Virus record (IMG/VR): IMGVR_UViG_3300014208_000024
Location: 288,001 to 352,000 of that record
DNA: 64,000 bases
Source: a virus
Taxonomy: Duplodnaviria; Caudoviricetes
Direction: 5' to 3' (one strand)
The notes below the pieces were generated by a model, which was not told the origin of the DNA, ran no database searches, and saw nothing but the letters and a program-made list of their open reading frames with translations. Shown in pieces: positions 12,658-64,000 of this stretch (within the stretch, counting starts at the first letter, position 1; every line of letters begins with the position of its first letter). A program made the position numbers and the translations under genes.

Positions 12658-13444
12658 AGACGAACTCAGGCAAATTAAAAATATCAAAAAAGCTTATGTC
12701 CAATTATGGAAAGGCGATTTTGCAAACGAAGCAACTTATATTGCTTTTATGGGATGTGAATTTCTTAAGATTCCGACACAAAGATTTCACATAGAGGACA
12801 TGGGTACATTAGAAATTGACAAAGATACTGTGGTTTTTGGAGGAGTTACAGCTGTAAGAACTGGATTGTCAATGATTGGAGCAGAACTTCCAAAACCTCT
12901 TGATATTCCAGAAGAACTTTATCCATATACAAAAAGAAATATAAGATTGGGAACTATAAAATCTTTTATGGAAGAAAAAAATTTCCCACTTTTTGTTAAG
13001 CCAAGACTACCAAAATTGTTTACTGGAGCAGTTGTTTGTAGTGCTGAAGAATTAGAATTGTTCAAATATCTTCATACAGATGATTTGGACATGGAAATTA
13101 TGGCCTCTGATGTTGTTAAATTCGTTTCTGAATATAGAACATTTGTTTTGGAAGGACACCCTTATGATTGTAGAAAATATAGCGGAAATCACAGAATAAC
13201 ACCAGATTTCAATTTTATTGAAGAAACTATAAAAGCATATAAAACTGCGCCAGTGGCTTATGGTATTGACTTTGGAGTAACAGACAAAGGGGAAACTATG
13301 TTAATAGAAGCTAATGATGGTTACTCCCTGGGAACTTATGGCTTTGATTGCTATAATTATGTTAGAATGTGCATACTTCGCTGGAATCAAATTCTAAATA
13401 ATGAACAGTTTTTTAAAGAAGGTGATAAAATAGAAATTATGTAA
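12647..13444 (+). CDS. ATP-grasp domain protein (DUF4343/R2K-like)
   Basis: FVKP..PKLFTG, VSEYRTFV, IDFGV, LIEANDGYSLG. Confidence 0.8.
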   Translation: MKFKDELRQIKNIKKAYVQLWKGDFANEATYIAFMGCEFLKIPTQRFHIEDMGTLEIDKDTVVFGGVTAVRTGLSMIGAELPKPLDIPEELYPYTKRNIRLGTIKSFMEEKNFPLFVKPRLPKLFTGAVVCSAEELELFKYLHTDDLDMEIMASDVVKFVSEYRTFVLEGHPYDCRKYSGNHRITPDFNFIEETIKAYKTAPVAYGIDFGVTDKGETMLIEANDGYSLGTYGFDCYNYVRMCILRWNQILNNEQFFKEGDKIEIM

Positions 13445-13465
13445 CCTTTTTTGTTTTTTTTCGTA
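13440..13465 (+). promoter_or_regulatory. ECF-sigma-type promoter
   Basis: TGTAAC-N16-CGTA. Confidence 0.7.
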
Positions 13466-13492
13466 TAGTGTTAAAATTCAAAAAATATAATT

Positions 13493-52749: not shown

Positions 52750-53271
52750 ATGAAAATAGAACTTAAGAATGTGAAAATTAGCGAAAGCTTAAGTGAAGAA
52801 ACTACAGCTTTTACAGCCGACATATTTGTGAATGGGAAAAAAGCGGGATATGCAAGAAACGACGGCAGAGGAGGGTGCACTGAATATCACTCATTTCCTG
52901 AAACAAGAGAATTGTTTGATAAAGCTGAAAAATTTGCTTTGACACTTCCAAAAAAGGTTGAGGAATTTAACGGGAAAATATACGAGTTCAATTCAAATTT
53001 AGAACTTATTATTGATAACATAATTGAGAACGTTCTCAAAGAAAAAGACAAAAAGAAACTTGAAAAAGCTTGTCTTAAAGGAATATTTAAAGGAAATACA
53101 TTTGATTATTCAGGCGTTTCTTACAAACTTCCCCTGAAAGATATTGTTAGAATTCATAAAGAAAAAGGTGTTGCACATCTTCAGGGGGCTTACAACAAAA
53201 TGAAGTCTGAACTTAAACAAGGAGAAAAAATACTAAATACGAACTTAGAAGAATTGGGGATTATACTTTAA
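52750..53271 (+). CDS. Hypothetical early protein
   Basis: SEET.AFTA.I...G...G.A.NDG.GG; own promoter. Confidence 0.7.
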   Translation: MKIELKNVKISESLSEETTAFTADIFVNGKKAGYARNDGRGGCTEYHSFPETRELFDKAEKFALTLPKKVEEFNGKIYEFNSNLELIIDNIIENVLKEKDKKKLEKACLKGIFKGNTFDYSGVSYKLPLKDIVRIHKEKGVAHLQGAYNKMKSELKQGEKILNTNLEELGIIL

Positions 53272-59584: not shown

Positions 59585-60187
59585 ATGAAAAAAATCTCTG
59601 GAGACGTTATCGCTCACCTCCTGTTTGGAGTGGCTGCAATTGGTTTATTAATCGGTGGAGCTATTATGCTAATAGCATCTTTCTTTACAGCTCTCCCTAT
59701 ATTTAATGCTTTTATCGTATTAACACTGGGAGCTATCCTATATGTGGGAGTTAGACTTTATTTTGTATTCGGCGATGTACTGGAATCTATAACTAAATTA
59801 ATAGAAATTTCTTCCTCTCCCCAGATAAATAAGAACGGTAGAATATATAAAAATGGATTGTTAACAAAACAAATGGGATTTGGAGACCTGCCAACTCATG
59901 ATCTATCAAAAATTCCACATCCTGCACCAGGATTAATTGATGAAATTCTTATTGATGAAAATACAACCCCAGAGGAAATTGAAAATATTAAAAAGAAATA
60001 TCCTGGGTTCTCTCATGCAATTGATGAAATACTGGAAAAGGTTGGGGGGATTTCACGTACATCTACTTTACCCCTATCTTCTCTCTCTTCTTTTAAATTA
60101 GAAAAACTTCTTCAGGAAGCTATTGATAAAAATGATTTTGAAAGAGCTGCTGAAATAAGAGACGAAATTAATAGAAGGAATAAGTAA
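59585..60187 (+). CDS. Two-TM membrane protein with C-terminal UVR (UvrB/C) coiled-coil motif
   Basis: LEKLLQEAIDKNDFERAAEIRDEI. Confidence 0.7.
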   Translation: MKKISGDVIAHLLFGVAAIGLLIGGAIMLIASFFTALPIFNAFIVLTLGAILYVGVRLYFVFGDVLESITKLIEISSSPQINKNGRIYKNGLLTKQMGFGDLPTHDLSKIPHPAPGLIDEILIDENTTPEEIENIKKKYPGFSHAIDEILEKVGGISRTSTLPLSSLSSFKLEKLLQEAIDKNDFERAAEIRDEINRRNK

Positions 60188-60208
60188 CCTTTTAAAAATT
60201 AATCCGTA
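60183..60208 (+). promoter_or_regulatory. ECF-sigma-type promoter
   Basis: AGTAAC-N16-CGTA. Confidence 0.6.
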
Positions 60209-60354
60209 TAAGATAGTAAGAGTAATTTATATAACAAGTTGTATCTACTAATCGCATGATTAAAACCCCACACCCAAAATTTGCTGGGGTTTTTTTATTC
60301 CCACTTTTTAAAATAATTTGCTTTATATAGTTATTGTTAAAAAAAACTAAAGCT

Positions 60355-60525
60355 ATGTTTGAAAAACTAATCTGGAAACTGTTTAAAATGAACAGGAATG
60401 ATTTCAATAAGGCAGATAAGAAAATTGAAAAGATACTGCTTGAAGTTTATGAAAAAGGTAAAAAGGATGGCAAAAAAGAAATGTCAAAATTAATGTCGAT
60501 ATTAGTTAAAAAAACAATATTATGA
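60355..60525 (+). CDS. Small hypothetical early protein
   Basis: Start ATG 60355. Confidence 0.55.
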   Translation: MFEKLIWKLFKMNRNDFNKADKKIEKILLEVYEKGKKDGKKEMSKLMSILVKKTIL

Positions 60526-60911
60526 AATTAGAAATTAAGCAATACAAATATGAAAAAATAGAGGTGTCATCAAAAGAAATTGAATTGCCAACTGAAACCT
60601 CTTACTTTTTTCAAACTGGAATAAGACGTTCAATAAAAATAACTCCACGTTTTACAACTTGGAATAAAAAACACTATAATAAAGAAGAAGAGTTATATGA
60701 ACTTATAGTTGTTTGTTTATACCAAAATTTTGAATGTAAAGCAGAAAAGTTCAGCTTAAGAGTTAATGAATTAGAAAATATTTATTATTCTGAAAAAGAC
60801 GAAAATAAAGAATTTGTAACTGCATTGATTGATGGTTGTTTTAATAAAAGAACTAAAGAACAATTTGATGCTGATTTTAAACACATATTTTCAGAAATGC
60901 AGTGTCTTTAA
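60522..60911 (+). CDS. Hypothetical protein
   Basis: ATGA overlap. Confidence 0.6.
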   Translation: MKLEIKQYKYEKIEVSSKEIELPTETSYFFQTGIRRSIKITPRFTTWNKKHYNKEEELYELIVVCLYQNFECKAEKFSLRVNELENIYYSEKDENKEFVTALIDGCFNKRTKEQFDADFKHIFSEMQCL

Positions 60912-60912
60912 A

Positions 60913-61443
60913 ATGAAAAAATTTCTCCTGTTCATATTCAATTTATTCAATAAGAAATCTCTGGAGCCCCCAAAACCAGAACTCATCGTCATTAGCAAAA
61001 AATCAAATAGCGGAAGTACAATACAAAACCATTTTGTCTATACAGCTGCAAACCCCAGTATTAAATCTCTGGCCGCTTCTGTGCTTCTTAAAAATGATCT
61101 TATGTTTCAAGATGTAGACTACCTGGAAGATGAACTTCATAAATGGCTCGAATTTCGTGAAAGATATCTATATAAACAACTGATATTAAAAAAAGGTCTG
61201 ATATGTACCTATTGTGGAAAACCCCACCTGGAAATCGGAGGTAGAACCCCCAAAGATATTATCGCTAATAACAAAAACCCAAACCTGGCAACTATAGACC
61301 ATATTACAGCGCTCGCTAATGGGGGATCAAAGTATGATGAAGATAATCTATGCGTTAGCTGTAAAAAATGCAACAGAAACAAAGGAACAACCCCAGTGGA
61401 AGAATTTAAAAGAAAATTAAATTTTAAAAATTTTAATCAATAG
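60913..61443 (+). CDS. HNH endonuclease
   Basis: CTYCG...ATIDHI.AL.NGG.....NL.VSC..CN..KG. Confidence 0.85.
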   Translation: MKKFLLFIFNLFNKKSLEPPKPELIVISKKSNSGSTIQNHFVYTAANPSIKSLAASVLLKNDLMFQDVDYLEDELHKWLEFRERYLYKQLILKKGLICTYCGKPHLEIGGRTPKDIIANNKNPNLATIDHITALANGGSKYDEDNLCVSCKKCNRNKGTTPVEEFKRKLNFKNFNQ

Positions 61444-61444
61444 T

Positions 61445-61470
61445 TGTAACCTTTTTTAATTTTTCTCGTA
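61445..61470 (+). promoter_or_regulatory. ECF-sigma-type promoter
   Basis: TGTAAC-N16-CGTA. Confidence 0.7.
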
Positions 61471-61477
61471 TTAATAG

Positions 61478-61590
61478 GTAACTTGGATAACTTGGACGCC
61501 CGTCCTTAAACTATTCAAGTCTTTGTATTCTTTGTCTGTTTTATTTTTTAGAAACCCCTGAGCTTGTCCCTCTGGGGTTTCAGTTTTTTA
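61478..61590 (+). ncRNA. Candidate small RNA
   Basis: ACTTGGATA/TATTCAAGT stem enclosing GGAC-GCCC-GTCC; terminator GAAACCCC...GGGGTTTC-T6. Confidence 0.45.
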
Positions 61591-61746
61591 AAAACTTTTT
61601 TTTAAATTTCGGTTCCGTCGTAAACCCCCACAAACAATCTCTTTTTCTATTTTTTATTTTTCTTTTTTTAAATTTCGGTTTGCTCGTAAACCCCCATAGT
61701 AAAACCCCCAATCTAAAATTCCCACTTTTTTAAAAAATTTGCTTTA

Positions 61747-61772
61747 TATAACTTTTGCCTTTTTTCTGCGTA
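61747..61772 (+). promoter_or_regulatory. ECF-type promoter overlapping the last class-1 promoter
   Basis: TATAAC-N16-CGTA. Confidence 0.6.
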
Positions 61773-61781
61773 TAAACCATT

Positions 61782-62057
61782 ATGGAAATATCAGTAACAA
61801 TTGAATCTATAAAACCAATTACCCTGGACCAGCTGTCCAGAGAAAAAACATACGTGGTTTTTAACTCAACATCATTCTATATTCACTCTGGGGATGATCT
61901 AAAGTGTCTGACAAACCAGGATGACATTAACATGACAACATCTCAGCTCTTTGATAATATAGGCCCCGCAGGATCGCATTACGTAGCTGAATGTGAATCT
62001 ATGGACGCTGCACTGGATTACTTTAATTCAGGTCACTGGAGATCATATAGTGAATAA
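61782..62057 (+). CDS. Hypothetical protein
   Basis: Tandem class-1 and ECF promoters upstream. Confidence 0.6.
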   Translation: MEISVTIESIKPITLDQLSREKTYVVFNSTSFYIHSGDDLKCLTNQDDINMTTSQLFDNIGPAGSHYVAECESMDAALDYFNSGHWRSYSE

Positions 62058-62059
62058 TT

Positions 62060-63300
62060 ATAACTAAGTTTTGTTACAGAGCCCTTGGGGATTATCCCAG
62101 CTTATTTTCATATCTGTTTTAAAAACTTTTTTTTTAATTTCTTTTTTGTCGTATACGCAGTTTTCCAAAAACTAAATAAAAAATAGAATTAGAATAGAAC
62201 TACATCTTCTCTACCAATGTGCGTCACTTCAGATTTTTTATTCCTGGGCCCAATTTTTTCTCAGGGACCTGTAACATTCTCAATAAAATCACGTACCAAT
62301 TAGTACAAGGGGGAAACCCCACAATTTTTAGATGACAACATTTAAAAACTAACGAATAAGAAAGGAGTATACTATGAAAAGGTAATTTGAAAATAATCTG
62401 ATAGACTTTTGGGAATGAAACAATATAGTTGTCTCTCCCCAGAAGAAAACAATAAAGTTATTATTGTTATCAGGATTACTATTTTTTGATCGCTAATTTT
62501 TGGGGATTATTTCCCCCTAGGATAACTACACCTCTTCCTTAAAAAAATGAAGTGAGTTCTCCCCACAAAATAACTATGCCCAAAAATATTTAAAATTTGT
62601 AAATTTATTTAAGGTTTACATAGGGGGATTTCTATAACCAAAAACTCTGGGGGCTTACTCTCATCCAAAACCCCCCACTATTTATTGTAAATTTATAATT
62701 TCACTTATTCTTTTGTTCCACGTGGAACAACTATATCCCCCTCAGTCATTTTAAAAATATTTAAAAGGTCCCTTATTTTTTTAAAAATCAAAGGTGAGTA
62801 TTTGGGGGCACTGAGTGTGAGTCAGTTGCGTCCCACCCCAGACCCCAAAAAGTATTTTTCACAACAACAATTTTTTCTTCTAACTTTACATTTAACCATT
62901 TATCTAAAAACCAGTTAGTTACTTATTTAAAAGTGCAAATAAGTGGGATAAAGTGGTAAATCTCCCCAGATTTCCCCCATAGTTTTTCCCTCAATCTTTC
63001 CCCAGAAATTCCCCATTAATAATTTGGGTAATTCTCCCTTAATATTCTGTAACAATATTATGTTATAAATGTTACATTTCTCCCCAGGAAATTCTGCAGG
63101 TAATTTAAGTAATTTCTGTCGCATATTTAGCATATATATGTGACAAGCAACATGCAACATCTCCCTGATAATTAATTAGAAGTGGGGGTTAAAATAGCGG
63201 AGGGGGGTCGGCGGATTAAAGAGGTAATTCTCCCCATAATATTAAGAAGTTAAAATTGGTACTTCTCCCCATGGTTTTTATCTATCTTTGTTTTTTGAAA
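62060..63300. other. Long non-coding, origin-like region
   Basis: ~1.2 kb without a credible gene; ~9 TCTCCC(C)-type words and C/G runs. Confidence 0.45.
62714..62729. promoter_or_regulatory. parS: parS-type palindrome (ParB-binding site)
   Basis: TGTTCCACGTGGAACA within the perfect 18-bp palindrome 62713-62730. Confidence 0.75.
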
Positions 63301-63340
63301 TAATTTTGTTTATATTTATTTTATATAAAACAAAAATAGA

Positions 63341-64000
63341 ATGAGATCGATCACAGAAGAAAGGTTAGCACGACAATTAATAAGGGAAGAAATAAAGAGG
63401 TGTATTATATATGAGGGATTAATTTTTTCTTATTCTCCAGCTTTTATATTTACTAGTTTAAAGGGCATGGGTTATAGTGATATTTTTTACAATAAGCACA
63501 GGAAGGTATTTAGTATAAATTTCGCTTTGGGTTCTGATAATGAATCAAGGTATAGGGATCTGGATCATTTTTTAGACAATGTTTGTGGATGGTTTCATGG
63601 TTCGAGTATTTCTAACAAAAATGTTTTACCAAACAAAACAAGTTTCATTGATATAATATCTGGGAATGTTTTTCTTCAGTATGAAGCGAAGTTTAATATA
63701 AGAGTTGAAAAATTACCAGGGAAGATATATCATTTAACCACGGAGGAAAAGTTAAAAAAGATATTAAAAGTTGGGTTGACTCCAAAGAGTTCTATTTTGT
63801 TATTAAATTACAGAGACAGGATATATTTTTCTTTGAATTATGATTCATTAATAAATTTTTCCAAACAAAAATCTTCCATTACGAATAAAAATGATTTTAT
63901 TATTTTAGAGGTAGAAACTTCTAAAATAAATCATGGGACAAGGTTTTTTGAAGATCCAAATTTTTTGAATGGGGTTTACACTTTAGAGAATATTCCCCCA
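63341..64000 (+). CDS. ART-fold (Tpt1/KptA-like) hypothetical protein, 3'-truncated by the window edge
   Basis: Open frame to the end; RQLIREEIK leader; IYHLT...ILKVGLTP...RIYFS...ILEV...FFEDP...GVYT.ENIPP. Confidence 0.55.
   Translation, partial: MRSITEERLARQLIREEIKRCIIYEGLIFSYSPAFIFTSLKGMGYSDIFYNKHRKVFSINFALGSDNESRYRDLDHFLDNVCGWFHGSSISNKNVLPNKTSFIDIISGNVFLQYEAKFNIRVEKLPGKIYHLTTEEKLKKILKVGLTPKSSILLLNYRDRIYFSLNYDSLINFSKQKSSITNKNDFIILEVETSKINHGTRFFEDPNFLNGVYTLENIPP

Follow-up and report, generated by a model that had tools for sequence, protein, structure and literature searches.

A huge T4-like phage from groundwater carries, in DNA without a convincing gene, an exact copy of parS, the centromere site at which chromosomal ParB proteins of bacteria are loaded. 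No ParB or ParA gene of its own was found in the phage DNA examined, and the placement of such sites in viral DNA is not random. From comparisons of sequence we consider it an even call that this palindrome is a lineage-specific loading site for the ParB protein of the host. None of the sheath relatives searched, the closest large one included, has the site, and rival readings are weighed below.

A chromosomal-type parS site in phage DNA

The window analysed here is a stretch of 64,000 nucleotides, bases 288,001–352,000 of the IMG/VR record G000 (372,283 bp, 28.7% G+C). Positions 62713–62730 of the window read TTGTTCCACGTGGAACAA, an 18-bp palindrome without a mismatch, and the 16-bp core within it, TGTTCCACGTGGAACA (62714–62729), agrees at 16 of 16 positions with TGTT(T/C)CACGTG(A/G)AACA. 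A sequence-only reading had reported a perfect palindrome containing a chromosomal-type parS and had described its spelling as a recognised functional variant. Direct inspection of the bases confirms the first statement, and the second is equally sound, since the exact 16-mer is a validated ParB site (PMC4368675), identical to parS2 and parS3 of P. aeruginosa and to parS of P. putida (PMC4368675, PMC7022226). The outer T..A pair that extends the core to 18 bp was considered as a special feature and rejected, bacterial sites being mostly flanked by A..T.

When one mismatch is allowed, the sole match to TGTTNCACGTGNAACA in the 372,283-bp record is the parS site itself, and the runners-up have two mismatches. 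Markov models of order 0–3 predict between 6e-4 and 1.1e-3 matches to the consensus per genome, and 2–5e-4 for the T/C–A/G spellings that bacteria use. The earlier statement that the site is unexpected by chance therefore stands, at about 1e-3 per genome under these models, whereas the uniform-model figure attached to it was rough. The record has one other perfect 16-bp palindrome that is not nearly pure A+T, TTGAGAACGTTCTCAA at window positions 53024–53039. Across the entire gap that holds parS, an independent Logan assembly (L379) does not differ from the record, and a second groundwater study, filed four years later, yields a low-coverage contig that agrees with it at every base of 62688–62897 (the contigs of run X2 do not cover 62906–63106). 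Identity in two independent data sets indicates that the parS sequence is not an assembly artefact.

The gap around parS

The features of the locus, in window coordinates, are the following.

60829..61443, + strand: HNH endonuclease gene, the last synteny anchor shared with the relative G001 (62% identity)
61782..62057, + strand: left flank gene, 91 aa, no family assigned
62058..63340, no strand: gap holding parS, without a convincing ORF; its right-hand side is partly homologous to the G001 gap
62270..62295, + strand: ECF-type promoter-like motif TGTAAC-N16-CGTA, directed into the gap (aligned G001 motif TGAAAC-N16-CGTA)
62374..62385, + strand: ATG AAA AGG TAA after an AAGGAG ribosome-binding site, all that is left of a 64-aa ORF found whole in G001
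62434..62441, + strand: iteron TCTCCCCA, copy 1 of 8
62558..62565, + strand: iteron TCTCCCCA, copy 2 of 8 and the last ahead of parS
62713..62730, no strand: 18-bp palindrome with the parS core, same letters as P. aeruginosa parS2/parS3 (PMC4368675)
62961..63271, + strand: cluster of six iterons, (GGTAAw)TCTCCC(C/T), starting at 62961, 63033, 63079, 63160, 63229 and 63264
63341..64000, + strand: right flank gene, 241 aa, no family assigned, extending beyond the window to 64066

The largest ORF-free stretch of the 372-kb record, which is 91% coding, sits within 62058–63340, in keeping with the non-coding location originally given for the site. A minus-strand ORF of 65–77 aa that runs over the iterons at 62927–63160 is doubtful. 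The iterons comprise eight copies on the same strand, two before parS and six after, and six of the eleven forward copies of TCTCCCCA in the genome fall in the gap. Since an intact 64-aa ORF occupies the aligned place in G001, part of the gap is a decayed small gene. The promoter-like motif is directed through parS, and transcription from it could dislodge ParB. No DnaA boxes were found in the gap, and an Rfam search of 61000–64000 gave no credible match. Around the start of the gap, a 53-nt repeat (AAAAAC, a T-run, AAATTTCGGTT..CGTA..) is present three times, at 61578–61630, 61644–61696 and 62109–62161; these repeats were considered as ECF promoters and rejected on their AAC-to-CGTA spacing of 23 nt. 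The genes nearby encode the HNH endonuclease, a UVR-motif protein, a DUF932 protein and unknowns. The gap lies close to one of two strand-switch zones and to the maximum, not the minimum, of the cumulative GC skew.

Conservation in related phages

The tail sheath protein led to 47 relatives, of which 43 distinct ones (~2.2 Mb, mostly fragments) were pattern-searched. None of the 43, including G001 and G029 (222 kb), has a parS site at one mismatch or fewer. G001 is the closest large relative (290,886 bp, 82% sheath identity, 91% complete), and its gene order matches that of the phage through a 78-aa gene, the UVR protein and the HNH gene, after which comes a gap of ~1.3 kb. The right half of this gap can be aligned with the phage gap and includes the last iteron of the cluster, which is conserved; at the position of parS the sequence is unrelated. 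G001 also has four TCTGACC repeats of its own in the gap (L187, minus strand, ~13200–13470). These, set against the eight iterons of the phage, suggest that each lineage has binding proteins of its own, or that the region is origin-like or regulatory.

Absence of parS from the G001 gap and from the sheath relatives marks this copy as lineage-specific and, with no site in any of the 43, counts against a lasting role for it. Conservation in related phages was one of two points on which the sequence-only reading had staked its proposal, the other being binding by host ParB, and on conservation the evidence runs against it. Additional routes to relatives gave little. The AAAAYTGGTACYTCTCCCCA element, conserved in the gap, retrieved from viral and metagenome contigs G001 again and two unrelated chance matches; a megablast of 60000–64000 against the phage collection had no match; and neither the 241-aa right-flank protein nor the HNH protein, used as anchors, found relatives in viral contigs. 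The 241-aa gene has homologues (P0004, P0013) in closely packed gene arrays, which contain neither a gap nor parS, and loci without any gap are uninformative on the conservation of the site.

Extent of the phage and search for partition genes

G000, which is rated 100% complete in IMG/VR, is a fragment of a larger phage. The 455,767-bp ENA contig ena:ERZ27249449:k141_11612 contains it at 82,468–454,738; the record begins inside a repeated TnpB/IS605-type element, of which the first 60 nt are present at two places in the contig. Beyond G000 we examined 67.4 kb of the contig to the left (15,047–82,467) and 1 kb to the right, so that the DNA examined for ParB and ParA amounts to ~440 kb of the 455,767 bp. 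The Pfam models ParB_N, HTH_ParB and AAA_31, which gave matches in control genomes, had none in the 372-kb record translated in six frames, and neither did our own ParB and ParA profiles, built from genes of bacterial origin regions. In the further ~68 kb of the same phage, our profiles and the precomputed Pfam lists also yielded no ParB or ParA, and no parS-like match within two mismatches was found in these ~67–68 kb. The genome-wide search for additional sites and partition genes that the sequence-only reading had proposed thus turned up no second parS (one mismatch or fewer, 372 kb) and no parA or parB in the ~440 kb examined. The left-hand part of the contig (15,047–82,467; L384–L390) encodes two sigma-70-family proteins, two TnpB copies and a reverse transcriptase, together with DnaJ, ClpP, an anti-Pycsar Apyc1-like protein, a RecD2-like helicase, parts of ABC transporters and a PRPP synthetase.

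The 16-mer in bacteria and the probable host

With each species represented by one genome, a scan found the exact 16-mer in at least 120 contigs, spread over many phyla, and the commonest genes beside it, among the matches listed, were gidB, parA, parB, dnaN and recF. Its bacterial setting is that of the canonical origin-proximal centromere. In the Bacteroidota, 73 of 101 sampled genomes have one to five perfect TGTT(T/C)CACGTG(A/G)AACA sites, usually clustered, and the reversed control pattern is found in none of the 101. A promoter of the Bacteroidota type, TTTG-N17-21-TAnnTTTG, stands upstream of 15 of the 482 phage ORFs as against 0 of 307 coding controls, and no promoter match of the TTGACA/TATAAT type was seen in the phage. 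The host phylum is thus likely to be Bacteroidota, as judged from these sequence patterns. A comparison with the parS of the predicted host had been advised at the outset; at the level of this predicted phylum, the site is in use.

Orphan parS sites in other viral contigs

At least 120 IMG/VR contigs contain the exact 16-mer. Control palindromes of the same composition were found 3 times (reversed) and 66 times (core-swapped, TGTTCCAGCTGGAACA), and with a control present 66 times raw counts make a weak argument. The intergenic excess is a stronger one: among the matches listed, 49 of 123 parS sites fall wholly between genes (in 41 different flank contexts), compared with 1 of 66 sites of the core-swapped control (Fisher p = 3e-10). 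ParB-like ORFs were recognised in the fetched flanks of 4 of the 120 loci listed and ParA in none of the 120. This excess suggests that the phenomenon is general, and testable.

Five of the contigs with perfect sites are other huge phages.

G044, 7.7 kb fragment: 1 perfect site, intergenic, in the tail module
G045, 4.9 kb fragment: 1 perfect site, intergenic, in the tail module
G046, 84 kb fragment, 22.6% G+C: 2 perfect sites, C1:41085 and C1:70873, 30 kb apart; 9e-5 expected
G047, 27 kb: 2 perfect sites, L176:1501–1516 and L176:1798–1813, 297 bp apart
G048, 351 kb, distantly related only: 1 perfect site, intergenic

G044 to G047 have structural proteins in common with G000, and no ParB_N match was found in any of the five. 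One of the G046 sites lies directly behind an intrinsic-terminator-like hairpin. Each G047 site is part of a 30-nt unit, TTAATAACCAAAAATGTTCCACGTGGAACAAT, just ahead of a small ORF or of a FEN/RNase H-like replication gene, an operator-like placement that hints at local silencing by spreading ParB. G048 shares 31 of the 482 ORFs with the phage, at ~30% identity. Its parS lies off the strand switch and outside its largest gap, so that no common positional rule was found for the sites. Behind the site in G048 come ~400 non-coding bp (L026:4087–4470), with the inverted repeats TCTGGAA/TTCCAGA and two copies of the word TTTTTGGTTCT. A 239-aa gene downstream of it was considered as the counterpart of the 241-aa right-flank gene and is unrelated. 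The occurrence of orphan host-type parS sites at non-homologous places in these huge phages looks like a pattern of repeated gain and loss.

Alternative explanations

Apart from a role in loading host ParB, the site may be neutral: non-coding DNA that evolves fast could have acquired it through a mutation or a small insertion, and it would serve no purpose even if ParB binds it. We think this improbable. It would agree with the absence of parS from the homologous gap of G001 and from the 43 sheath relatives, and with the decay of the gap, in which the 64-aa ORF of G001 is down to three codons. Scanning a very large amount of sequence will also flag rare chance matches somewhere, and a palindrome of the same composition is indeed found 66 times in IMG/VR. 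Against it count the expectation of only ~1e-3 sites per genome and the two perfect sites in each of G046 and G047, which cannot be chance. Of the background palindromes, moreover, hardly any is intergenic (1 of 66), as against 49 of the 123 listed parS sites, a ratio by which an exact intergenic parS in viral DNA is seldom background. Some of the same observations bear on a further proposal, that the palindrome is bound by a dimeric DNA-binding protein of the phage and belongs, with the iterons, to an origin, packaging or regulatory region, the likeness to parS being coincidence or mimicry. The position of parS amid same-strand iterons, with 6 of the 11 forward genome copies of TCTCCCCA, invites such a view, and the different iterons of G001 (TCTGACC) in the same gap fit lineage-specific binding proteins; both G047 sites, in a 30-nt repeat near gene starts, are operator-like as well. 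No candidate protein was found, however, and no ParB-like fold in ~440 kb; the gap has no DnaA boxes; and a match to the centromere at 16 of 16 positions across distant phages with unrelated flanks is better accounted for by a shared reader in the host. On balance we rate a phage-encoded reader as distinctly unlikely.

At the RNA level, the palindrome could fold, within a non-coding transcript from the ECF-type promoter at 62270–62295, into a hairpin with a 7-bp stem and an ACGU loop, an explanation to which we give very little credence. The promoter-like motif is conserved in G001 and directed into the gap, and a fold of 62640–62860 sets the hairpin within a longer helix (z = -1.9). This z value is weak, however, and unaccompanied by an Rfam match; the stem is not followed by the U-tract of an intrinsic terminator, and in G001 neither the hairpin nor the structure has a counterpart. 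Above all, the identity with parS would be left unexplained. The original suggestion that the phage borrows host ParB thus survives in part: the parS match, the lack of any ParB or ParA found in the phage, the sites in Bacteroidota, the intergenic excess and the precedent of phi29 favour it, and the lack of conservation does not. A further point against loading of host ParB is that the phage has a single site, as compared with five in phi29 and the usual clusters on chromosomes.

Relation to known partition systems

The nearest precedent is phi29, which has five host-type parS sites and in which Spo0J helps to trap the genome in the spore, according to the account of Meijer et al. 2005 given in PMC2731898. 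As far as that account goes, the likeness to phi29 and Nf lies in a virulent-looking phage that bears the chromosomal parS of its host without a ParB of its own, and this combination is what the ~440 kb examined here appear to contain. The differences, within the same limits, are considerable: phi29 infects a spore former, is a podophage of 19 kb and has five sites; the present phage is T4-like, is at least 456 kb long and has one. Several sites kept in related phages, a further feature of the phi29 type, are not what we observe, the single site being absent from G001 and the 43 sheath relatives. The payoff must also differ, since entrapment in the spore, as described for phi29, would be of no use in the probable host phylum, Bacteroidota, which is non-sporulating. 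Literature searches found no description of host-type parS sites on phages beyond the phi29 family, and the novelty with respect to phi29 is in the type and size of the phage, the single site and the probable non-sporulating host.

Compared with the chromosomal ParABS systems (B. subtilis Spo0J/parS; P. aeruginosa parS1–4, PMC4368675), the 16-bp sequence is identical, and by analogy the same biochemistry would be expected here, namely nucleation, the CTP clamp, spreading and interplay with ParA and SMC (reviewed in PMC7022226). On chromosomes the sites form clusters near oriC with parAB beside them, whereas the phage site is single, orphan and viral; it has no parAB next to it and lies near the GC-skew maximum in a gap without DnaA boxes. 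The partition cassettes of plasmid-like prophages form a third group for comparison. P1 parABS, N15 sopAB and mycobacteriophage parABS each comprise their own ParA and ParB and a site with its own spelling. The present site resembles them in being a centromere-like element on a phage that could serve episomal inheritance; it differs from them in that no parA or parB was found beside it or elsewhere in the DNA examined.

Proposed mechanism and implications

We infer binding of the site by the ParB of the host from its sequence. After infection, host ParB dimers would bind the phage parS, take up CTP and close into clamps, which would then spread over the adjoining iteron-rich gap, so that a host-type partition complex would be assembled on the phage chromosome. 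Such a complex may have any of several roles. It may allow ParA-driven positioning or inheritance of phage DNA during a slow or carrier-state infection; following replication of the phage DNA, it may titrate ParB off the host origin; or it may act locally, in silencing or insulating the gap.

A wider proposal, which we put forward tentatively and think less probable than a role for this one site, is that virulent phages of many lineages, among them huge ones whose hosts do not sporulate, have repeatedly evolved the copying of the host centromere, and that the strategy is widespread. Orphan parS sites would be gained and lost, and the host ParB loaded on them would either let the phage ride the ParA and SMC machinery, and so be positioned or inherited in a carrier state, or be soaked up by the multiplied phage DNA, which would stall the segregation of the host chromosome. 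A cheap marker is available, as no intergenic excess would be expected in phages of hosts without ParABS.

If host ParB is indeed loaded here, 16 bases would be enough to join a phage of at least 456 kb to the segregation and condensation machinery of its host, without any gene contributed by the phage. The trick known from phi29 would then extend from phages of spore formers to huge phages with Bacteroidota-like hosts, for which the payoffs may include positioning of the genome, persistence without lysogeny, and sabotage of host segregation.
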